From assembly GCF_046105845.1 (NCBI RefSeq), contig NZ_CP151004.1: a stretch of 64,000 nucleotides of DNA. One strand, given 5' to 3'. This stretch comes from Escherichia coli. GTDB lineage: Bacteria > Pseudomonadota > Gammaproteobacteria > Enterobacterales > Enterobacteriaceae. The position numbers and the translations under genes are program-made. A model generated the notes under the pieces. It saw nothing but the letters and a program-made list of their open reading frames with translations. It had not been told where the DNA came from and did no database searches. How positions within the stretch are numbered: the first letter of the stretch is position 1; every line of letters starts with the position of its first letter. Of this stretch, positions 13,797-59,759 are shown piece by piece.

Positions 13797-14798
13797 ATGA
13801 GTAAAGTTGGTATTAACGGTTTTGGTCGTATCGGTCGACTGGTGTTGCGTCGATTACTTGAAGTCAAAAGCAACATAGACATTGTTGCTATTAATGATCT
13901 CACTTCCCCAAAAATTCTCGCCTACCTGTTGAAACATGATTCAAACTACGGACCGTTCCCCTGGAGCGTTGATTTTACGGAAGATTCACTTATCGTTGAT
14001 GGAAAAAGTATCGCGGTTTACGCCGAAAAAGAGGCTAAAAATATTCCATGGAAAGCGAAAGGCGCAGAAATCATTGTCGAATGTACTGGCTTTTATACCT
14101 CCGCCGAGAAATCGCAGGCGCACCTTGATGCTGGTGCGAAGAAGGTGTTGATTTCCGCCCCTGCCGGTGAAATGAAAACCATCGTTTATAACGTCAATGA
14201 CGACACACTGGATGGCAACGACACCATTGTTTCCGTGGCGTCATGCACCACTAATTGTCTTGCACCGATGGCCAAAGCCTTGCACGACAGTTTCGGAATA
14301 GAAGTCGGCACGATGACGACCATTCATGCCTATACCGGCACTCAGTCACTGGTGGATGGTCCGCGAGGTAAAGATCTACGCGCTTCACGTGCAGCGGCAG
14401 AAAATATCATTCCCCACACTACAGGTGCGGCAAAAGCCATTGGTCTGGTGATCCCGGAACTGAGCGGCAAACTGAAAGGTCATGCGCAACGCGTGCCGGT
14501 GAAAACAGGTTCGGTGACTGAGCTGGTATCGATTCTCGGAAAAAAAGTGACTGCCGAAGAGGTGAATAACGCACTTAAACAAGCAACCACCAATAACGAG
14601 TCATTTGGTTATACCGATGAAGAAATAGTCTCTTCCGATATCATTGGCAGCCATTTCGGTTCGGTGTTTGATGCCACGCAAACGGAAATTACCGCCGTGG
14701 GCGATTTACAACTGGTGAAAACGGTCGCCTGGTACGATAACGAATATGGCTTCGTCACGCAGCTTATTCGCACCCTCGAAAAGTTCGCTAAACTCTGA
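13797..14798 (+). CDS. gapC: Glyceraldehyde-3-phosphate dehydrogenase GapC, full-length (333 aa)
   Basis: Intact ORF with GAPDH motifs ([21 protein letters not shown]); at K-12 gapC position. Confidence 0.9.
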
Positions 14799-17547: not shown

Positions 17548-20500
17548 TTAACCGCTAATCTGCTCCATCGCCTGCAAAATACGCTTATCTGAAATCGGAT
17601 AAGGCGTACCAAGTTGTTGAGCGAAGTAACTAACGCGCAACTCTTCTATCATCCAACGGATCTCTTTAACGTCTTCATCCTCACGACGTGCGGGCGGTAG
17701 TTTGTTGAACCATTGCTGCCACGCCTGCTGGACGTTTTCGACTTTCAGCATCTGAGCACGGTCGCGATGCGGATCAACCGCCAGTTTTTCCAGTCGTTTT
17801 TCAATCGCCTGCAAATAACGCAGCGTGTCGCCCAGCCGTTTAAAACCGTTGCCAGTGACAAAACCGCGATACACCAGCCCGCCCATCTGCGCTTTAATGT
17901 CAGAAAGCCCCAGCGCCATGGTCATATCCACCCGCCCTTTCAGGCGTTTGTTGATATTGAACACTGCCGTAAGGATTTGCTCGACCTGCTTTGCAATATC
18001 CACCACCGTGTCGTTCAGTTCAGCGCGAACTTTTTCATGCAGCGCAGCAAAGCCTTCTTCCGTCCAGACCGGGCCACCATTGGCGTCGATCAGTTGATCC
18101 ACACCGCAGGAGATACAGTCGTCGATCAGCTCCAGCACTTTGCCATACGGGTTAAAGTACAGCCCAAGTTTGGCTTTGTTTGGCAACTTCTCATGCAAGT
18201 ATTTGATTGGTGAAGGAATATTCAGCAGCAGTAAACGACGAAGACCGTTCCACATCGCTTGCTTTTGTTCCAGCGGGTTATCAAACAGTTTGATCGCCAC
18301 GCTGTCGCGCTCATCCACCAACGCTGGCCACGCCTTCACTTTGTAGTTGCCACGCTTCTGTTCGTAGCTTTCCGGCAGCTGACCAAAACTCCAGATATGT
18401 AAGCCGCTCTGCTCGATACCGTCATCCGCCACCGCAGACAGCGTTTCCTGCACTTTGCCTTTCAGAGCATCTTTCAGATCCTGTAATGAGCGCCCTTCTT
18501 TTAACTTCTTGTTTTTGTCATCCACCACACGGAAGGTGATTTTCAGGTGATCGGGCACCTGATCCCAGTGCCAGTCTTCGCGGTCAACGGTGACGCCAGT
18601 CATCCGCCGTAGCTCTCGTTCAAGACTGTCGAGCAACGGCAATTCCAGCGGTGTGACGCGGCCTAGAAACGCTTCGGCGTAGGTTGGCGCGGGCACAAAA
18701 TTACGGCGTACTGGTTTCGGCAACGATTTAATCAGAGCAATCACCAGTTCGCGGCGCAGACCGGGGATCTGCCACTCAAACCCGCTCTCCTCAACCTGGT
18801 TAAGTAACGGCAGCGGGATATGCACAGTCACACCGTCAGCATCTGCCCCCGGCTCAAACTGATAGCTCAAACGCAGTTTGAGATTGCCCTGATGCCAGAA
18901 GTTCGGGTAATCCAGCTTGCTGATCTTTTCCGCCCCTTCTTTGATCAACATGCTCTTTTCAAAGTTGAGCAAATCAGGCGTTTCGCGGCTGACTTTTTTC
19001 CACCAGCTGTCGAAGTGACGTGCGGAGATCACATCGTGGCTGATGCGCTGGTCGTAAAACTCAAACAGCGTTTCGTCATCCACCAGAATATCGCGGCGAC
19101 GTGTTTTGTGTTCCAGTTCTTCCACTTCGGCCCGTAGTTTCAGGTTTTCACGGAAGAATGCGTGACGCGTCTGCCAGTCACCTTCCACCAGCGCGTGGCG
19201 AATAAAGAGTTCACGACATAACGCCGGATCGATCTGGCTGTAGTTGACCTTGCGCGCGGCAACAATCGGCAAGCCATAAACAGTGACTTTTTCCGTTGCC
19301 ATCACCGCGCCCTGCGCCCGTTCCCAGTGTGGTTCGCTGTAGGTGCGTTTAATTAAATGCTGAGCAACTGGCTCCACCCATTCTGGATCGATGCGTGCCG
19401 CAATGCGCCCCCACAGGCGGCTGGTTTCTACCAGTTCCGCCACCATTACCCATTTCGGCGGCTTTTTGAATAAACCAGAACCGGGAAAGATGGAAAAACG
19501 CGCGTTACGTGCGCCGGTATATTCTTGTTTATCGGCATCTTTCATGCCGATATGGGAAAGCAAACCGGTCAGTAAGGCGATGTGAATTTCGCGATACTCC
19601 GCCGGTTCGCTGTTAACCGGAATGCCAAGTTCTTTCACCACCTGGCGCAACTGGGTGTAGATATCCTGCCATTCGCGCACGCGCAGATAGTTGAGATAAT
19701 CGGTACGACACAGGCGACGGAAGGCGTTAGAAGAAAGCGCCTTTTGCTGCTCGCCAAGATAATTCCACAGATTTACAAACGCGAGGAAGTCGGATTCTTT
19801 GTCGTGGAAGCGACGATGTTTTTCGTCCGATGCCTGCTGTTTGTCCATTGGTCGCTCACGCGGATCCTGAATGGAGAGCGCGGACGTGATAATCATCGCC
19901 TCACGCACGCAGCCATGTTTTTGCGCTTCCAGCACCATACGCGCCAGACGAGGATCGACAGGCAATTGCGAAAGCTGGCGACCGAGCGGCGTTAGTTTAT
20001 AGGCGCTGGCCTGTTCATCAGTGGTGATCGCACCCAGCTCTTCAAGCAGACGCACGCCATCCTGGATATTGCGTTTATCCGGTGCTTCGACAAACGGGAA
20101 CGCCGCGATATCACCCAGCCCCAGCGCGGTCATCTGCAAAATAACCGAGGCCAGGTTGGTACGCAGAATCTCCGGATCGGTAAACTCCGGGCGCGAGAGG
20201 AAATCGTCTTCGGAATAGAGACGAATACAGATCCCTTCAGACACACGACCACAGCGGCCTTTACGCTGATTGGCAGACGCCTGCGAAATCGGCTCAATCG
20301 GCAAACGCTGCACTTTGGTGCGATAGCTGTAGCGGCTGATACGTGCTGTACCGGGGTCGATAACGTATTTAATCCCCGGTACGGTCAGCGAGGTTTCCGC
20401 GACGTTGGTCGCCAGCACAATACGCCGTCCGCTGTGCGACTGGAACACGCGGTTCTGTTCGCTGTTCGAAAGCCGCGCATAAAGCGGCAAGATTTCGGTA

Positions 20501-21450
20501 TGCCGCAGATTTAGCTTGTTCAGCGCATCGGCGGTATCGCGAATTTCCCGCTCACCGCTCATAAAGATCAGAATGTCGCCTGGGCTTTCCTGACTCAGTT
20601 CGTCTACGGCGTCAAAAATCGCCTGCAGCTGATCGCGCTCGGTGTCATCGGCTTCTTCAACAATCGGTCGATAGCGCACTTCCACCGGATAGGTCCGACC
20701 GGAGACTTCGATAATCGGCGCATTATTAAAGTGGCGCGAAAAGCGTTCCGGGTCGATAGTCGCGGAAGTGATAATGATTTTTAGGTCAGGACGCCGCGGT
20801 AGCAACTCTTTCAAATAGCCGAGCAGAAAATCGATATTCAGGCTGCGTTCGTGCGCTTCGTCAATAATGATAGTGTCGTACTGCATCAGCAGGCGGTCTT
20901 GCTGGATCTCCGCCAGCAGGATACCGTCGGTCATCAGCTTGACCATCGTGTTATCACTAACGTGATCACTGAAACGCACTTTGTAACCGATGCAACCGCC
21001 CGGCTCCGTTTTCAGCTCTTCCGCAATACGGTTCGCCACCGTTCGCGCAGCCAGACGACGCGGCTGGGTATGGCCGATCAGCCCTTTAATCCCGCGCCCC
21101 AGCTCCATACAGATTTTCGGTAGCTGAGTCGTTTTACCGGAACCCGTTTCCCCGGCGACGATCACTACCTGGTGATCACGAATTGCTTCGAAAATGTCCT
21201 GCTTTTTCTGACTAACCGGCAAATTGTCCGGATAAGTGATTTCCGGTCGTGCCGCTTCACGCAGCAGGACTTTCCCTGCCGCATGGTCAATCTCTTTCGC
21301 CATCTCCTGGAAAATGGCCTGTTGTGCATCAGGATTTTTAACCTTCTTCACGCCGTGCAGACGGCGAGAAAAACGCAGTCTGTCGCGCAGCATCAGCGAA
21401 TCCAGCCGCTGCTGCAAGGCCGTAAAGGTCAATTTTTGTTGTTCTGTCAT
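17548..21450 (-). CDS. hrpA: ATP-dependent RNA helicase HrpA (DEAH-box)
   Basis: 1300-aa ORF with Walker A GETGSGKTTQLP and DEAH box; length identical to K-12 HrpA. Confidence 0.95.
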   Translation of the reverse strand: MTEQQKLTFTALQQRLDSLMLRDRLRFSRRLHGVKKVKNPDAQQAIFQEMAKEIDHAAGKVLLREAARPEITYPDNLPVSQKKQDIFEAIRDHQVVIVAGETGSGKTTQLPKICMELGRGIKGLIGHTQPRRLAARTVANRIAEELKTEPGGCIGYKVRFSDHVSDNTMVKLMTDGILLAEIQQDRLLMQYDTIIIDEAHERSLNIDFLLGYLKELLPRRPDLKIIITSATIDPERFSRHFNNAPIIEVSGRTYPVEVRYRPIVEEADDTERDQLQAIFDAVDELSQESPGDILIFMSGEREIRDTADALNKLNLRHTEILPLYARLSNSEQNRVFQSHSGRRIVLATNVAETSLTVPGIKYVIDPGTARISRYSYRTKVQRLPIEPISQASANQRKGRCGRVSEGICIRLYSEDDFLSRPEFTDPEILRTNLASVILQMTALGLGDIAAFPFVEAPDKRNIQDGVRLLEELGAITTDEQASAYKLTPLGRQLSQLPVDPRLARMVLEAQKHGCVREAMIITSALSIQDPRERPMDKQQASDEKHRRFHDKESDFLAFVNLWNYLGEQQKALSSNAFRRLCRTDYLNYLRVREWQDIYTQLRQVVKELGIPVNSEPAEYREIHIALLTGLLSHIGMKDADKQEYTGARNARFSIFPGSGLFKKPPKWVMVAELVETSRLWGRIAARIDPEWVEPVAQHLIKRTYSEPHWERAQGAVMATEKVTVYGLPIVAARKVNYSQIDPALCRELFIRHALVEGDWQTRHAFFRENLKLRAEVEELEHKTRRRDILVDDETLFEFYDQRISHDVISARHFDSWWKKVSRETPDLLNFEKSMLIKEGAEKISKLDYPNFWHQGNLKLRLSYQFEPGADADGVTVHIPLPLLNQVEESGFEWQIPGLRRELVIALIKSLPKPVRRNFVPAPTYAEAFLGRVTPLELPLLDSLERELRRMTGVTVDREDWHWDQVPDHLKITFRVVDDKNKKLKEGRSLQDLKDALKGKVQETLSAVADDGIEQSGLHIWSFGQLPESYEQKRGNYKVKAWPALVDERDSVAIKLFDNPLEQKQAMWNGLRRLLLLNIPSPIKYLHEKLPNKAKLGLYFNPYGKVLELIDDCISCGVDQLIDANGGPVWTEEGFAALHEKVRAELNDTVVDIAKQVEQILTAVFNINKRLKGRVDMTMALGLSDIKAQMGGLVYRGFVTGNGFKRLGDTLRYLQAIEKRLEKLAVDPHRDRAQMLKVENVQQAWQQWFNKLPPARREDEDVKEIRWMIEELRVSYFAQQLGTPYPISDKRILQAMEQISG

Positions 21451-21641: not shown

Positions 21642-22256
<615 letters not shown>

Positions 22257-22300: not shown

Positions 22301-22369
22301 TTAATCCGCTTACCTGTTTTCTATCGCTTTGTGCTCTTCCTTAAGCACAATCTGCGAGCGCCTGACTCG

Positions 22370-23230
22370 TTATTCTCGCGAAATACCATCCAACGTAGAC
22401 AACACTTCCTCAGAAAGATGCAATTTTTCAGCAGCCATATTCTCCCGTAAATGCGCAACAGAAGACGTCCCTGGGATCAGCAAAATATTCGGTGAACGTT
22501 GTAACAGCCACGCCAGCGCCACCTGCATTGGTGTTGCACCCAGGCTCGCAGCAACATCGGAAAGCGTGGAAGATTGCAGCGGCGTAAAGCCCCCGAGCGG
22601 AAAGAACGGCACGTAGGCAATGCCATCGCGGGCCAAATCATCAATCATTGCGTCATCAGCACGATGAGCAATGTTGTATTCGTTCTGCACACAGACGATT
22701 TCGGTAATCTTACGCGCCTCTGCAACCTGCGTCGGTGTGACGTTGCTCAGGCCAATATGTTTTACCAGGCCTTGTTGTTGCATCTCTGCCAGCACGGTCA
22801 GGCTGGCTTCAATCGATCCTTCCGCCGGGCCATGACCATCCCCCATCATGACGCGCAGGTTAACCACATCCAGTACGTCCAGACCGAGATTACGTAGATT
22901 ATCGTGCACCGCTTTTTGCAGCTCTGCCGGAGAAAATGCGGGCAACCAGGAAGCGTCCTCTCCACGCCGCGCACCAATTTTAGTGACAATTGTCAGGTCG
23001 TCAGAGTAAGGATGTAGCGCTTCGCGGATAATCTGATTGGTGACGTGCGGACCATAAAAGTCGCTGGTATCAATATGATTGACGCCCAATGCCAGCGCCT
23101 CGCGCAGCACGGTTATAGCAACGTGGCGATCTCTTGGGGGGCCAAAAACCCCAGGGCCTGCCAGTTGCATCGCGCCATAACCAAGACGGTTAACGGATTT
23201 TGTACCGAGAGTAAATGTGTTGCTGCTCAT
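22370..23230 (-). CDS. ydbC: Aldo-keto reductase family oxidoreductase YdbC
   Basis: 286-aa ORF with AKR fold signatures; matches remembered YdbC. Confidence 0.88.
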   Translation of the reverse strand: MSSNTFTLGTKSVNRLGYGAMQLAGPGVFGPPRDRHVAITVLREALALGVNHIDTSDFYGPHVTNQIIREALHPYSDDLTIVTKIGARRGEDASWLPAFSPAELQKAVHDNLRNLGLDVLDVVNLRVMMGDGHGPAEGSIEASLTVLAEMQQQGLVKHIGLSNVTPTQVAEARKITEIVCVQNEYNIAHRADDAMIDDLARDGIAYVPFFPLGGFTPLQSSTLSDVAASLGATPMQVALAWLLQRSPNILLIPGTSSVAHLRENMAAEKLHLSEEVLSTLDGISRE

Positions 23231-23385
23231 CGCACCCTGCCCTGTAGTAAAACGGATTAAGAAAAATCAGTATAGAAACGAAAAGAGATAAATAATGCGA
23301 AGGCGTAAACAAGATTACTGGATGAGTTGCTCTATTGTCCTTGAAGACACCAAACCAAAACGCCTAAAGCATCGCATCCGGCAAT

Positions 23386-23416
23386 AAAAAACCGCAACCT
23401 GTATCAGCGTTGCGGT
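23386..23416 (-). terminator. Rho-independent terminator downstream of paaY (accgcaac...gttgcggt + T-run on minus strand)
   Basis: 8-bp stem with A5 on plus strand; adjacent partial REP-like motif gcatcgcatccggcaa. Confidence 0.6.
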
Positions 23417-23460
23417 TTGTGTATCACATGCTAAAAATTAGAACGTCCAGCATCAGGACG

Positions 23461-24051
23461 TTACTGTTTCGGTCGCAGATTCTCATCAAATACCAGGCGT
23501 TTCCTGCCAGGTTCAACTTCCCGCAATGGCTCGACTTGATGTAACGTCTGCTTACAGCGTGTCACCAGCACCTGGTACTCATGCGTACCCTGCTTTTTCC
23601 ATGCCAACTCCTGCTCACTGAGTTCACGAATCGCTTTCGCCGGGCTGCCGACAATCAGGTAATTAGCTGGCATTTCTGCTTTGGCTTTCACAAATGCGGA
23701 TGCGCCAACAATGCTGTTCTCGCCAATCACCGCACCGTCTATCACTACCGCGTTCATTCCCACTAATGCATTGCGGCGGATAATGCAGCCGTGAAGGATA
23801 GCGCTATGACCAATATGTCCATCTTCTTCCACGACAGTATCCTGCTCGGGAAAACCGTGCATAACGCAATTATCCTGAATGTTCGCGCCATTTTTCACCA
23901 CGATACGATCAAAATCGCCACGCAGGCTGGCATTTGGCCCAACGTAAACGCCCTTGCCGAGAATAACATCGCCGATCAATACCGCTGTCGGATGAACAAA
24001 ACTCTCTTGTGGTACAACCGGAGTCAGACCGTCTATCTGATAAATTGGCAT
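23461..24051 (-). CDS. paaY: PaaY-like hexapeptide-repeat acyltransferase/thioesterase, intact but lacking the rest of the paa cluster
   Basis: 196-aa [37 protein letters not shown]... with left-handed beta-helix repeats; matches PaaY. Confidence 0.85.
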
Positions 24052-24158
24052 AACGCCTCCTGTTCAATATTCAAGCCGCCAAAACGTTGAAAATACAGGC
24101 TTCCCGGCGCAGGCAATTCACCGACCGAGGTTTCACCTTTTTCACTAACGAACGCTAA
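24033..24158 (-). pseudogene. paaX: 3'-terminal remnant of paaX (about 40 C-terminal codons), 5' part deleted
   Basis: Minus-strand frame ends 19 nt inside paaY as expected for paaX; N-terminal part of the 97-aa ORF is antisense to the feaR remnant, so only about 24033-24158 is likely paaX-derived; junction position approximate. Confidence 0.45.
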
Positions 24159-24392
24159 AGCAGCAGGCGCTACGCGCTGATAAAGTTTGCCGATAAAGGT
24201 TTGGTAGTCGCGCAATATATCCGTAACCGTCGTCTCGATTTTTGTGCAGATGCGATTCGCCATGCCGCAGATGATGAAAAACTGGCAGGCATTGGCTTTC
24301 ATTGGGGATTTTCCGACCAGAGTCATTTTTCAACGGTATTTAAGCAACGCTTTGGGATGACGCCAGGCGAGTATCGACGTAAATTCCGCTAA
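24159..24392 (+). pseudogene. feaR: 3'-terminal remnant of feaR (AraC-family C-terminal HTH region), 5' part deleted
   Basis: Plus frame ...YALIKFADKGLVVAQYIRNRRLDFCADAIRHAADDEKLAGIGFHWGFSDQSHFSTVFKQRFGMTPGEYRRKFR* is a typical AraC/XylS second HTH; in-frame stop at 24156-24158; convergent with ydbL as feaR is in K-12. Confidence 0.5.
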
Positions 24393-41714: not shown

Positions 41715-41908
41715 GTAACCTCCTATGCACCTTCACACGTCGTGATTCAGACGGGTTAATTGTTCATACTTACTGCATCGTTCCCTTCACAGATTGAAAC
41801 AATACTCTACTTCATACCTGTGAGTATCTGCGCAGGCGGGGCATTTTATACTAGCCTGTTAGCAGTATCGAACAGTTTAGCCCGAGTTTAATTCAGCACA
41901 GGCTCCGA

Positions 41909-43423
41909 TCAGGATGATTTATTCATAGCAGGAACCAACAAAAATGCGATAAATAACAGACCACTGATTAGCAGAAAGGTATCCGAAAATGCCATAGTTT
42001 GCGCCTCCCTCAGCATCAATTGACTCAATAATTTGGTTGAAGCCAGTATTTCCGATGTCTGGTCACTTCCACTGCGATTAAAAAACAAAGCACTTCTGGA
42101 AATGAAGTCATTCACCGTATGGGGAACAGAAACCATTTTTTCACTCATTCTCGAAAAATGAAAATTAGTTCGATTATTGAGAATAGAGCCACACAGGGCA
42201 ATACCAATCGCGCCCCCAAGATTACGTGTTAAATTAAATACACCAGAGGCTAACTTCAGCCGTTCTTTTGGAATTCCCCCCAGCGTTAATGTTACGATGG
42301 GGGCCATCGCAAACTGCTGCGAAATCCCTCTAATTGCCTGTGGAAACAGTAACTCCTGCCATCCCCATTCGTGGGTTATAGGGGTAAAAAGATACATTGA
42401 AAACACAAATCCACCCAGCCCCGCCATCAACAGCCATCGCAGATTTATTTTTTTACTTAACCAGAAGTAAAAGGGAACAGAAAATAACTGGAAAATACCT
42501 GTTGTGCAAACGGCAAAACCTATCTCTTCGGCATTTAATCCGCGAACCTGTCCCAAAAACACAGGTATTAAATATACAGTAGAGAATATCCCAACCCCTC
42601 CAGAAAAAGAAAAAAAACATCCCAGCGTGAAATTTTTATCCTTAAAAGCATGAAGATCCATTATCGGATTGGATATTGTAAGTGTACGCGCAGCAAATAA
42701 AATAAAACTCACCAATGCCAGAACTGATGTCAGCAAAATAGTATTATCATCCAGCCATCCCCAGCGCGCTCCTTCTTCAAGGGTATATTCCAGACATCCC
42801 AGTGTCATGGCCAACAGGATAATACTCGGATAATCAGCAACTTTCAGTAAAGAGAGATCAGGTTTATCAAAATTAACCAGAAAAGGAATACTCAAAACTA
42901 AATATATGCCAGGTAATATATTGATATAAAATAGCCATCGCCAGTCGAGGTTATCAGTGATCCAGCCCCCCAGAGTTGGCCCTAGCGTCGGTGACAGTGA
43001 GGCCAGCGCACTGACTACCGCAGCAGCCAACCCCAACTCTTTACCCTGGTAATAAATAAACGCCGTCGTGAAAACTAAAGGGATCATGGATGCGCCAGCC
43101 GCTCCCTGTAAAGCACGAAACAAAATCATGATCTGAATATTCCATGCAAGTCCACACGCGATACTCATTAAAGTAAATATTCCCGCGGATAGAGTAAAAA
43201 GCCAACGAGTGGAAAATACCCGTGACAGCCACCCAGAGAGCGGAATAACAATAATCTCAGCAATTAAATAGCTGGTCTGAAGCCAGGCCATTTCGTCTTT
43301 ACCTGCGGACAGACCACCACCTATTTCATTTAGGGATGACGATACAATTTGAATATCAAGCTGAGCAATAAATAATCCCATACACATACTGGCGAAAGCA
43401 ATATGTTTACGCATAGACATCAT
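41909..43423 (-). CDS. MFS drug/H+ antiporter, DHA2 (14-TMS, EmrB/QacA-like) family
   Basis: 504-aa highly hydrophobic ORF with MFS signatures; 4-bp overlap with upstream MFP gene; AT-rich relative to flanks; no counterpart at this position in K-12 (memory). Confidence 0.85.
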   Translation of the reverse strand: MMSMRKHIAFASMCMGLFIAQLDIQIVSSSLNEIGGGLSAGKDEMAWLQTSYLIAEIIVIPLSGWLSRVFSTRWLFTLSAGIFTLMSIACGLAWNIQIMILFRALQGAAGASMIPLVFTTAFIYYQGKELGLAAAVVSALASLSPTLGPTLGGWITDNLDWRWLFYINILPGIYLVLSIPFLVNFDKPDLSLLKVADYPSIILLAMTLGCLEYTLEEGARWGWLDDNTILLTSVLALVSFILFAARTLTISNPIMDLHAFKDKNFTLGCFFSFSGGVGIFSTVYLIPVFLGQVRGLNAEEIGFAVCTTGIFQLFSVPFYFWLSKKINLRWLLMAGLGGFVFSMYLFTPITHEWGWQELLFPQAIRGISQQFAMAPIVTLTLGGIPKERLKLASGVFNLTRNLGGAIGIALCGSILNNRTNFHFSRMSEKMVSVPHTVNDFISRSALFFNRSGSDQTSEILASTKLLSQLMLREAQTMAFSDTFLLISGLLFIAFLLVPAMNKSS

Positions 43424-44451
43424 CTCTCATCAACACTGACGGTGACGGACAGTCCCGGGCGAAGAAGTTGCTTTAATTCCTTTGCGTCGTCAAATGCAAT
43501 CCGTACCGGGACACGCTGAACAATTTTGGTGAAATTGCCAGTGGCATTTTCTATCGGAATCAAGCTGAAACTGGCTCCTGTCGCTGGGGAAAGGCTTTCA
43601 ATGTGACCGTGAAACACTTCCCCTTTGAGAATATCAGCACGGATCTCAGCCTTCATTCCTGGCTTCATTCCCGCTATTTGGTTTTCTTTATAATTTGCAT
43701 CAACCCACAACTCACTGACTGGTACTAGTGAAACTAACGATGTGCCGCCTTCCACCCAACTGCCTGTATGGGCGCTGCGGTTTGCGACAATGCCATCAAT
43801 CGGCGCACGAACAAGGGTATATTCCAGATCCAGTAGTGCCTGAGTCAAAGCGGCCTGAACTTCTTCGATACTCGCACGTGCGTTTTCTTCCTGAGCAGAT
43901 AAAACTGCCAGCCGTTGCTTCTCCACCATGAAATCGTTCGCGGCTTTGCGCTCCTTTGCTGCGACCTGCTGGTAGTCAAACCTGGCGTTATCAATAATTT
44001 GTTGCGATATTGCCGCTGATTGTGCGAGTTTTTCATAACGTTCAGTATCTCGCAGGCGCTTTTGCTCCTCATGTTTTACTGCCTGCCATGTTTCACTGGC
44101 ACTTTGAATTATCGACTGCTGCATCGCAATAGTGGCTTGAATGCTTTCGAGATTGGCTTTGCTACTTTTTATTTTTGCCTCAAGCCTGGCGACATTTGCA
44201 CGATAATCCCGATCATCGAGACGCAGGATAATATCGCCTTTTTTTACGCTCTGATTATCGCGCACCTCTATAGCAGAAATATAACCAGAAACTTTACTTG
44301 CCACCGTGGTGATATTACCACCAATGTAAGCATCATCCGTCGTCTGTATAAATCTTCCTTTACTTACCCACCAGATAAAAAAGACAACGCCAGTCAAAAG
44401 AATACCGATCGCTACCACCCCAATAAGCTGTTTTTTAGAAATTATCATCAC
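43420..44451 (-). CDS. HlyD/EmrA-family membrane fusion protein (periplasmic adaptor)
   Basis: 343-aa ORF with N-terminal TM anchor, long coiled-coil segment and beta-barrel/lipoyl regions typical of EmrA-like MFPs. Confidence 0.85.
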   Translation of the reverse strand: MMIISKKQLIGVVAIGILLTGVVFFIWWVSKGRFIQTTDDAYIGGNITTVASKVSGYISAIEVRDNQSVKKGDIILRLDDRDYRANVARLEAKIKSSKANLESIQATIAMQQSIIQSASETWQAVKHEEQKRLRDTERYEKLAQSAAISQQIIDNARFDYQQVAAKERKAANDFMVEKQRLAVLSAQEENARASIEEVQAALTQALLDLEYTLVRAPIDGIVANRSAHTGSWVEGGTSLVSLVPVSELWVDANYKENQIAGMKPGMKAEIRADILKGEVFHGHIESLSPATGASFSLIPIENATGNFTKIVQRVPVRIAFDDAKELKQLLRPGLSVTVSVDER

Positions 44452-44544
44452 TCTTTACACCGTATATATCCGGAAACTTGCATTCGTCATATTTAAAATT
44501 TAACATGGCTTATTTGATGGTTTCTGACAAAATACCTACTGTAA

Positions 44545-45360
44545 ATGACAATCACACTGCAACCCAAAGCATCACCAGGGCATCACATTATCGGACTGGA
44601 TTCGGAACATCTGAATGGAGGCACAGTTCCCTGGCATAAACATCTCTATGCCCAGTTGCTTTACCCGGCTGAAGGAGTCGTTCGTGTATGGGCTGGAGAA
44701 AGCGTCTGGTTAGTGCATGCCAGCAGCGCGCTTTGGCTGCCCCCACAAATGCCGCATAAGTTTGTTGCGACAGGCAACGTACTTTTAAAAACCGTACTGG
44801 TTTCAGAAGCGGAAAGTGAAACGCTGGGAAAAGTTTGCTTCATGACGGGTATTTCACCCCTGTTAAGAGAATTACTAATTGCAATTAACCAACTTCCACC
44901 GTCGCAAAGTACCACAGATAAACAACAGTTACGTTTTTCAGCCCTCGAGACACTGATACTTCAGGAAATAAAAATGGGGGTGAAAATGTCACTTGAACTC
45001 CCTTGGCCAAATGATGAGCGGCTACAGCAGCTTTGTGAGAATTTGCTAAACAACCAAGGGTATCTGCCAACACTGGATAATCTAGCGGATAAAATTAACG
45101 TCAGTAGCCGTACACTCATGCGCTTATTTGTTAAAGAGACGGGATTAACATTTCGCCACTGGGTTCAGCAAATGCACGTTATTTCTGCAGTGACGCTTCT
45201 TGATGATGGATATTCGTTGACCAAAATTGCCCATCGTCTGGGCTATGCCTCAGCTGAATCGTTCGGCAATATGTTTAAGCGTCGAACGGGCTACTCGCCC
45301 GGTAAATTTACTCGTCGATTAACGATGCATGATTATGCAATCACAAGACAAATGATTTAA
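44545..45360 (+). CDS. AraC/XylS-family transcriptional regulator with N-terminal cupin-like sensor domain
   Basis: 271-aa ORF; C-terminal HTH pair (…SRTLMRLFVKETGLTFRHWVQQMHV… LGYASAESFGNMFKRRTGYSPGKF); divergent from the MFP-MFS operon with 93-bp intergenic. Confidence 0.8.
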   Translation: MTITLQPKASPGHHIIGLDSEHLNGGTVPWHKHLYAQLLYPAEGVVRVWAGESVWLVHASSALWLPPQMPHKFVATGNVLLKTVLVSEAESETLGKVCFMTGISPLLRELLIAINQLPPSQSTTDKQQLRFSALETLILQEIKMGVKMSLELPWPNDERLQQLCENLLNNQGYLPTLDNLADKINVSSRTLMRLFVKETGLTFRHWVQQMHVISAVTLLDDGYSLTKIAHRLGYASAESFGNMFKRRTGYSPGKFTRRLTMHDYAITRQMI

Positions 45361-59120: not shown

Positions 59121-59759
59121 ATGAAAAATGTACTGATTCTTGGTGCTGGCGGTCAGATAGCCCGCCATGTGATTAATCAACTGGCAGATAAACAAACCAT
59201 TAAACAAACTTTATTTGCCCGTCAGCCAGCAAAAATCCACAAACCCTATCCAACTAATAGCAAGATTATTATGGGGGATGTACTGAATCATGCAACACTG
59301 AAGCAGGCCATACAGGGACAGGATGTTGTGTATGCCAACCTTACGGGGGAAGATTTAGATATTCAGGCAAATTCAGTGATCGCTGCGATGAAAGCCTGTG
59401 ATGTTAAACGTCTGATCTTTGTTCTTTCCCTCGGTATTTATGATGAAGTTCCAGGAAAATTTGGCGAATGGAATAATGCAGTTATTGGTGAACCCCTAAA
59501 ACCATTCCGCAGGGCTGCGGATGCAATTGAGGCTTCTGGACTGGAATATACAATTCTTCGCCCTGCCTGGCTGACCGATGAAGATATTATTGATTATGAG
59601 CTTACCTCACGCAATGAACCATTCAAAGGTACGATCGTATCACGTAAGAGTGTCGCAGCATTAATTACAGATATCATCGATAAACCTGAGAAACACATTG
59701 GTGAGAATATAGGCATCAATCAACCCGGGACTGATGGTGATAAGCCATTCTTCATGTAA
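59121..59759 (+). CDS. ymjC: NAD(P)-binding Rossmann-fold protein (NmrA/atypical SDR-like), intact 212 aa; corresponds to the ymjC/ymjD locus
   Basis: N-terminal GAGGQIARH dinucleotide-binding motif; single uninterrupted ORF between ycjY and mpaA. Confidence 0.7.
   Translation: MKNVLILGAGGQIARHVINQLADKQTIKQTLFARQPAKIHKPYPTNSKIIMGDVLNHATLKQAIQGQDVVYANLTGEDLDIQANSVIAAMKACDVKRLIFVLSLGIYDEVPGKFGEWNNAVIGEPLKPFRRAADAIEASGLEYTILRPAWLTDEDIIDYELTSRNEPFKGTIVSRKSVAALITDIIDKPEKHIGENIGINQPGTDGDKPFFM

Follow-up and report, generated by a model that had tools for sequence, protein, structure and literature searches.

The pdxI-paaY spacer of an Escherichia coli chromosome is probably the scar of an old ydbA deletion

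The 230-bp spacer that separates pdxI (formerly ydbC) from paaY in the Escherichia coli chromosome analyzed here is, judging from sequence comparisons, very probably the scar of a single old deletion of ydbA that did not involve an IS and that is now polymorphic and recombined in E. coli. The window, i.e., the whole 64,000-nucleotide stretch that was analyzed, corresponds to about 1.506 to 1.387 Mb of E. coli K-12 MG1655, in reverse orientation, and ends in ydcO and in mpaA-ycjG-tpx-tyrR. Over positions 1-25000, the closest of 5426 complete genomes (the soil/drain isolates VCSW5 and VCSW7) are 98.5% identical to it; as no better match was found, the window appears to come from a sparsely sampled lineage.

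A first-pass annotation of this DNA had reported that about 230 bp separate ydbC from paaY where K-12 carries a ydbA disrupted by IS2 and IS30, and that ydbA and its IS copies are missing. These observations were confirmed. The open reading frame listing and Pfam matches place the spacer at 23231-23460, exactly 230 bp; the K-12 interval between pdxI and paaY holds ynbG and a ydbA that is split by IS2D and IS30C; and BLAST against K-12 showed that K-12 1465063-1474004 (8,942 bp) is without a counterpart in the window. Both flanking genes are collinear with their K-12 equivalents, pdxI encoding pyridoxine 4-dehydrogenase, an aldo-keto reductase. The features of the spacer and its flanks are as follows.

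22370-23230, minus strand: pdxI (formerly ydbC), intact open reading frame, Pfam Aldo_ket_red (1.3e-49), K-12 b1406
23231-23437, minus strand: 207-bp ortholog of the K-12 ydbA-pdxI spacer, from a BLAST block and alignment
23355-23384, minus strand: decayed single REP, from a REP-core scan and outgroup alignment
23389-23418, minus strand: predicted intrinsic terminator hairpin inherited from ydbA, from folding; 10-bp stem followed by a U-run
23438-23455, minus strand: ydbA 3'-end remnant of 18 nt, TGATGCTGGAC plus GTTCTAA, with the ydbA stop codon at 23438-23440
23442-23462, minus strand: scar hairpin AACGTCC / GGACGTT (7 bp), from a terminator scan, followed by CTAATTTTTA
23461-24051, minus strand: paaY, intact open reading frame of 196 aa, Pfam Hexapep, K-12 b1400

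On the minus strand, the paaY stop codon TAA (23463-23461) is followed by a shared C (23460), GTCC (23459-23456), TGATGCTGGAC (23455-23445), GTTCTAA (23444-23438), and the 207-bp spacer ortholog (23437-23231), which should contain the pdxI promoter region and is covered by a BLAST block (22367-23446 against K-12 1475084-1474005) with 95.7% identity. Full-length ydbA genes end in ...GGCG TGATGCTGAAC TTCAAGAAAAC GTTCTAA, encoding GVMLNFKKTF*, and MAFFT aligned the scar with this 3' end across a single 11-nt gap located between two AAC repeats. The window thus carries GTCC-TGATGCTG(G/A)AC-GTTCTAA followed by the ydbA terminator, in a scar sequence identical to that of strains 042 and 4973; the complete-genome collection contains 100% matches to a 72-nt query centred on it. 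Strain O145 RM9467, which has no ydbA, keeps the exact unmutated ydbA 11-mer TGATGCTGAAC in its scar; the chance of finding the exact 11-mer in the last ~100 nt is estimated at ~1e-4, and the presence of the intact 11-mer in this strain places the ydbA origin of the scar beyond doubt. With regard to GTCC (23456-23459), its origin is uncertain, both filler and a diverged GGCG being possible; the ydbA remnant, stop codon included, comprises 18 nt or perhaps 22.

This remnant identifies the spacer as a deletion scar rather than as a site that was never occupied or that was cleaned of IS copies. The first-pass annotation had named autotransporter-derived sequence or IS ends in this interval as grounds for refutation; the former is technically present, which does not restore ydbA, and IS ends were not found. 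The remnant is the sole trace of ydbA in the window: a tblastn search with the 2163-aa YdbA of strain AF40 yielded no meaningful match (E at least 0.4), and no open reading frame with BigA_N, BigA_beta, or a C-terminal barrel was found in the window. The term "autotransporter" is itself an annotators' label, as Pfam matches to AF40 YdbA were limited to BigA_N and BigA_beta, with no classical beta-domain. Between 21400 and 25200, Rfam gave no match to a known RNA family at E≤1.

We infer that an illegitimate deletion of ~6.8 kb in an ancestor with intact ydbA would have removed, in one event, ynbG, the ydbA promoter region, and nearly all of ydbA, a giant surface protein gene of the BigA/YdbA family; the 11-nt gap between the AAC repeats would reflect either secondary slippage or a part of one complex event. 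Such a deletion would have left 18-22 nt of ydbA with its stop codon, the ydbA terminator, the decayed REP, and the pdxI promoter region, and no mobile element would have been involved. The resulting allele segregates in E. coli as a presence/absence polymorphism, having moved among backgrounds by recombination and gained point mutations. Long flanking repeats are absent from the breakpoints. Against this explanation stand the GTCC at the left junction, for which it does not account, and its need for either two steps or one complex event.

The K-12 alignment and pangenome survey proposed in the first-pass annotation were both carried out, and the survey showed the junction to be widespread. 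A 530-bp probe across the junction was contiguous in 2028 of the 5426 complete E. coli genomes (about 37%), and a 72-nt probe centred on the scar matched over its full length in 2038 of 5426. In genomes that carry ydbA, matches to the latter probe are confined to positions from 23460 upward, so that the left breakpoint falls a single nucleotide past the stop codon of paaY; on the right, the break is ~30 nt short of the ydbA end. All nine other ydbA-less genomes inspected have these breakpoints and the 11-nt gap, as judged by alignment in 042, 4973, 2015C-3905, MINF_2E, E110019, 268.2, O145 RM9467, and A25, and in E2348/69 on the basis of identical gene spacing and an identical extended PaaY C-terminus. 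The single origin proposed here thus draws on ten genomes at base level out of ~2030 carriers. Point mutations distinguish five scar sequences among these ten genomes (hence at least five overall), and the flanks of junction carriers are 94-98% identical to the window, both of which fit an old allele. The pdxI-side spacer of the window is closest (98.9%) to that of AF40, a genome with ydbA, indicating that the scar has been recombined onto different backgrounds.

Some ydbA sequence occurs in 3147 of the 5426 genomes and is very diverse; the AF40 allele was matched over at least 80% of its length in 181 of 5426, with passenger regions 75-90% identical. Strain CX08 carries a distinct partial deletion in which 196 bp is all that is left of the paaY-ydbA spacer, and in further strains IS1, IS3, or IS200-family elements have inserted within ydbA or close to it. 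That this region varies has been reported before: a phylogroup A survey found full-length ydbA in about 42% of genomes, described the fea-paa-ydbA stretch as a "region of genomic heterogeneity", and reported variable carriage of feaRB-tynA-paa between core ydbH-ynbE-ydbL and ynbC-ynbD-azoR (PMC4951805, Sci Rep 2016;6:30115). The ydbA/paa region is therefore a case of ordinary strain-to-strain presence/absence polymorphism. That survey gives no base-level junctions, and the ynbC and ynbD genes that it treats as core are deleted in the window.

The direction of change at this site was assessed with outgroups. A scan with PdxI listed mostly distant aldo-keto reductases of Alphaproteobacteria and Burkholderiales; among the matches listed, which did not include the E. 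coli representative, the informative outgroup loci were all from the set L006-L009, and three were used for polarity. Pseudocitrobacter faecalis has the order paaK-paaX-paaY-ydbA-pdxI-azoR-hrpA, and ydbA-pdxI-azoR is the order in SCPM-O-B-8794, a divergent Escherichia that bears the label E. coli and shares ~90% identity with K-12 over azoR-hrpA; both genomes conserve the YdbA C-terminus GVMLNFKKTF* codon for codon. In E. albertii NBRC 107761, ydbL lies ~170 bp from pdxI (L006, 5299-5471), ydbD follows pdxI, and the whole feaR-feaB-tynA-paa-ydbA block is missing. Together with the relic in the spacer, ydbA and its conserved C-terminus in the outgroups indicate that the occupied site is ancestral and the empty site derived, with support from one other genus and one divergent Escherichia; horizontal transfer of paa-ydbA-pdxI en bloc is possible.

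These data bear directly on the alternative that the empty site is ancestral and that some lineages acquired ydbA between paaY and pdxI by horizontal transfer. The high variability of ydbA, with only 181 genomes matching at least 80% of the length of the AF40 allele and with divergent passenger regions, would suit such a history, as would the lack of ydbA beside pdxI in E. albertii; however, E. albertii is missing the entire feaR-ydbA block rather than ydbA alone, P. faecalis and the divergent Escherichia have ydbA at the same position with the same C-terminus, and the empty site retains the final codons of ydbA, its stop codon, and its terminator, so that an insert would have had to end within the last 9-30 nt of its own open reading frame and to take its final codons and stop codon from the target site. 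Insertion is disfavoured, and we regard it as highly improbable. A repeated origin of the same junction at a deletion hotspot, rather than a single one, is also very unlikely, if less so than insertion. The region is clearly prone to deletion, given three independent scars in 2 kb of the window, the different partial deletion in CX08, and the different azoR-pdxI junction in A25 and E2348/69, but the complex scar (a break 1 nt after the stop codon, GTCC, and the 11-nt gap) is structurally identical in all ten genomes, and no long repeat able to drive recurrence is present.

The least likely of the alternatives is that an allele like that of K-12 lost ydbA through its IS copies, either by an IS-promoted adjacent deletion or by recombination between IS copies. 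K-12 ydbA does hold IS2D and IS30C, and the insertions of IS1, IS3, and IS200-family elements in other strains show that such copies are at hand in or near ydbA. Nevertheless, blastn and tblastn searches for IS2, IS30, IS609, IS5, IS1, IS200C, ISEc13, Rac, and their transposases or integrase found none in 23231-23460, nor did blastn and tblastn find IS terminal repeats, transposase remnants, or target-site duplications at the ydbA junction; neither IS ends nor sequence resembling an IS turned up in the spacer or elsewhere in the window to support this route. Except for 4 nt, the whole spacer is explained by paaY-side or ydbA/pdxI-side sequence, while adjacent deletions by IS usually leave an IS at the junction, and the allele, in contrast to the insertions specific to K-12, is widespread and has diversified. 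The absence of ydbA in this strain, in keeping with one old non-IS deletion, represents an inherited, widespread deletion allele and is not a sign of an IS-free or "clean" genome.

The ydbA scar is one of three deletion junctions in this part of the window, none of which involves an IS. The gene order is hrpA (17548-21450, minus strand), azoR, pdxI, paaY, a paaX 3' remnant, a feaR 3' remnant, ydbL, ynbE, and ydbH, and the features that mark the other two junctions are as follows.

21651-22256, plus strand: azoR, open reading frame collinear with K-12 azoR and directly adjoining pdxI
22310-22369, minus strand: ydbD-ynbABCD deletion scar, a 57-nt ynbD 3' remnant plus CGA microhomology at 22367-22369
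24033-24184, minus strand: paaX 3' remnant of 152 nt, from a BLAST block that ends at K-12 1464338
24182-24392, plus strand: feaR 3' remnant (~211 nt) with the C-terminal AraC-type HTH, from BLAST blocks; open reading frame 24201-24392

In K-12, ydbD-ynbABCD sits between azoR and pdxI. Overlapping BLAST blocks and comparison with K-12 and AF40 showed that the window has lost K-12 1475085-1482129 (7,045 bp), the pdxI stop region being fused via CGA to ynbD; this ynbD-remnant junction is found in 145 of 5426 complete genomes, AF40 included. On the other side, 720 bp away, the junction at 24182-24184 marks the loss of K-12 1446589-1464337 (17,749 bp), which removed the 5' part of feaR, feaB, tynA, paaZ, paaA-K, and the 5' part of paaX; it occurs in 259 of 5426 genomes, with 100% identity in VCSW7, and strains 042, 4973, and A25 have a partial PaaX pseudogene annotated at this junction. 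Three independent scars within 2 kb thus bracket pdxI-paaY, a remnant of 1.9 kb, and, compared with K-12, three non-IS deletions have cost the locus about 33.7 kb. All three junctions together were found in none of the 5426 complete E. coli genomes. Seven genomes (A25, E2348/69, and relatives) cover at least 80% of azoR-to-ydbL, with a different, outgroup-like azoR-pdxI junction. In A25 (L092, 1731-1830) and E2348/69 (L093), azoR and pdxI are joined without a ynbD remnant, pdxI ends in ...AKGG*, and a simple terminator comes next; this junction matches those of the outgroups (L007, 5430-5530; L008, 10770-10925). The sequences suggest that ydbD-ynbABCD was an insertion carried by most E. coli.

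Comparison with three known loci places the window among these haplotypes. E. coli 042 (NC_017626.1) shares the 230-bp spacer scar, the paaX-feaR remnant junction, and an orphan paaY, but its pdxI and azoR are still separated by ydbD-ynbABCD, in which ynbB carries an IS1, and its spacer haplotype around the REP is different. AF40 / CFSAN061763 has the closest pdxI-side spacer and the same azoR-pdxI junction with the ynbD remnant; unlike the window, it carries an intact 2163-aa YdbA (Pfam BigA_N, BigA_beta) and the whole paa cluster. K-12 MG1655 (b1400-b1406) resembles the window in the flanking genes, the ydbA-pdxI spacer, the terminator, and the decayed REP, whereas it keeps the ydbA pseudogene, ynbG, the paaY terminator, the fea-tyn-paa cluster, and ydbD-ynbABCD.

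Deletion of the fea-tyn-paa block makes paaY an orphan, and it should be annotated here as an orphan remnant of a deleted pathway; given the gene loss, breakdown of phenylacetate or phenylethylamine via this locus should not be possible in the strain. Synonymous and nonsynonymous codon differences from K-12 paaY stand at ~1:1 in three genomes without paa, compared to ~5:1 in four with paa, and in A25 and E2348/69 the paaY stop codon is lost (TAA to TCA), extending the open reading frame into the ydbA scar. These differences suggest relaxed constraint on the orphan paaY, in a small sample of genomes that are not phylogenetically independent.

The first-pass annotation had also noted a terminator hairpin and a partial REP-like motif in the spacer, and both are real. 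The hairpin (stems 23389-23398 and 23409-23418; -16.7 kcal/mol) is followed by UUUUUUAUU on the minus strand; as a GC-rich hairpin with a U-tract, it is a predicted rho-independent terminator, and it is kept in all aligned E. coli alleles, with or without ydbA. K-12 paaY has a terminator of its own (AAAGCAGAG...CTCTGCTTT, -16.0 kcal/mol by folding). Because the deletion took this terminator and the hairpin at 23389-23418 is the first strong one downstream of paaY in the window, read-through transcripts of paaY should end at the ydbA terminator.

REP elements are imperfect palindromes of ~35 nt, with a 5' arm GCCGGATGCG... and a 3' arm ...CTTATCCGGCCTAC. The motif at 23355-23384, which reads TTGCCGGATGCGATGCTTTAGGCGTTTTGG on the minus strand (23384 to 23355), matches the 5' half of a REP; its 5' arm is present and its 3' arm is degenerate, reading GGTTTGGTGTC where a REP has ATCCGGCCTAC. 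Its ortholog downstream of ydbA in P. faecalis and the divergent "E. coli" representative (L007, 4400-4520; L008, 9810-9900) is an intact inverted REP pair (BIME), and by this alignment the motif is best called a REP relic. At the BIME position of the outgroups, E. coli has the hairpin terminator and the decayed single REP. Elsewhere in the window, the REP-core scan found REP-type repeats to be present but few.

The scar itself contains a further hairpin (23462-23442 on the minus strand), which takes in the final two bases of the paaY stop codon and is followed by CUAAUUUUUA. In the allele of the window, 042, and 4973 it folds at -10.5 kcal/mol versus -3.6 to -6.3 in other scar alleles; an A-to-G change at 23447 gives the otherwise weak junction hairpin a perfect 7-bp stem right next to the stop codon of paaY. 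A reading of the three differences between the scar and ydbA as compensatory hairpin-building, by quasipalindrome correction or selection, was rejected as a general claim since the hairpins of other alleles are weak or different and the perfect stem occurs only in the window/042 type. We do not regard the scar hairpin as a conserved functional element. A more speculative proposal, that the locus is a hotspot where the genome shrinks step by step as recombination builds ever-smaller haplotypes and that the perfected scar hairpin was selected as a new 3'-end element of the orphan paaY transcript, seems very unlikely to us.

The importance of these findings extends little beyond annotation hygiene. 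The scar (paaY stop codon, C, GTCC, TGATGCTGRAC, GTTCTAA) offers a convenient marker for allele typing and for following recombination in the region.

The first-pass annotation had gone on to state that the window contains no mobile DNA at all, naming the absence of IS609 next to ydcO and of Rac at ttcA. Comparison with K-12 bore out both absences and showed IS609, Rac, and IS5F to be missing at clean empty sites. For IS and prophage sequence the broader statement also stands, within the elements searched and K-12 synteny: apart from the ttcA attachment core and a single weak match of 49 nt, the same search over the whole window found nothing, and the aligned K-12 blocks are of matching length, leaving no room for hidden insertions. 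Viewing the window as K-12 minus mobile DNA misses the larger nearby differences, the 17.7-kb and 7.0-kb deletions, and the earlier interpretation is supported in part. The weak match (41832-41879; 82% identity to the tnpB gene, insQ, of IS609; E=5e-5 in a small search) lies at the edge of a block without a K-12 counterpart. Its assignment as a tnpB relic was not substantiated, as there are stop codons in frame, the tblastn E was 0.4, and the RefSeq annotation of identical DNA lists no transposase pseudogene there; the match may be a tiny IS605-family relic or due to chance.

The block in question (41725-45324, 3.6 kb), which K-12 lacks, has the smrA side and the abgR/mcaS side as its borders. 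Its genes are for a DHA2-family MFS efflux pump, an HlyD-family adaptor, and an AraC-type regulator, and 1316 of 5426 genomes (e.g., strain 536) carry it with about 99% identity. A second segment not shared with K-12 is the gene for a 212-aa NAD(P)-binding protein, an intact open reading frame at 59121-59759 where K-12 has ymjC/ymjD fragments. At 13797-14798, an intact open reading frame of 333 aa is found where K-12 has the gapC pseudogene.
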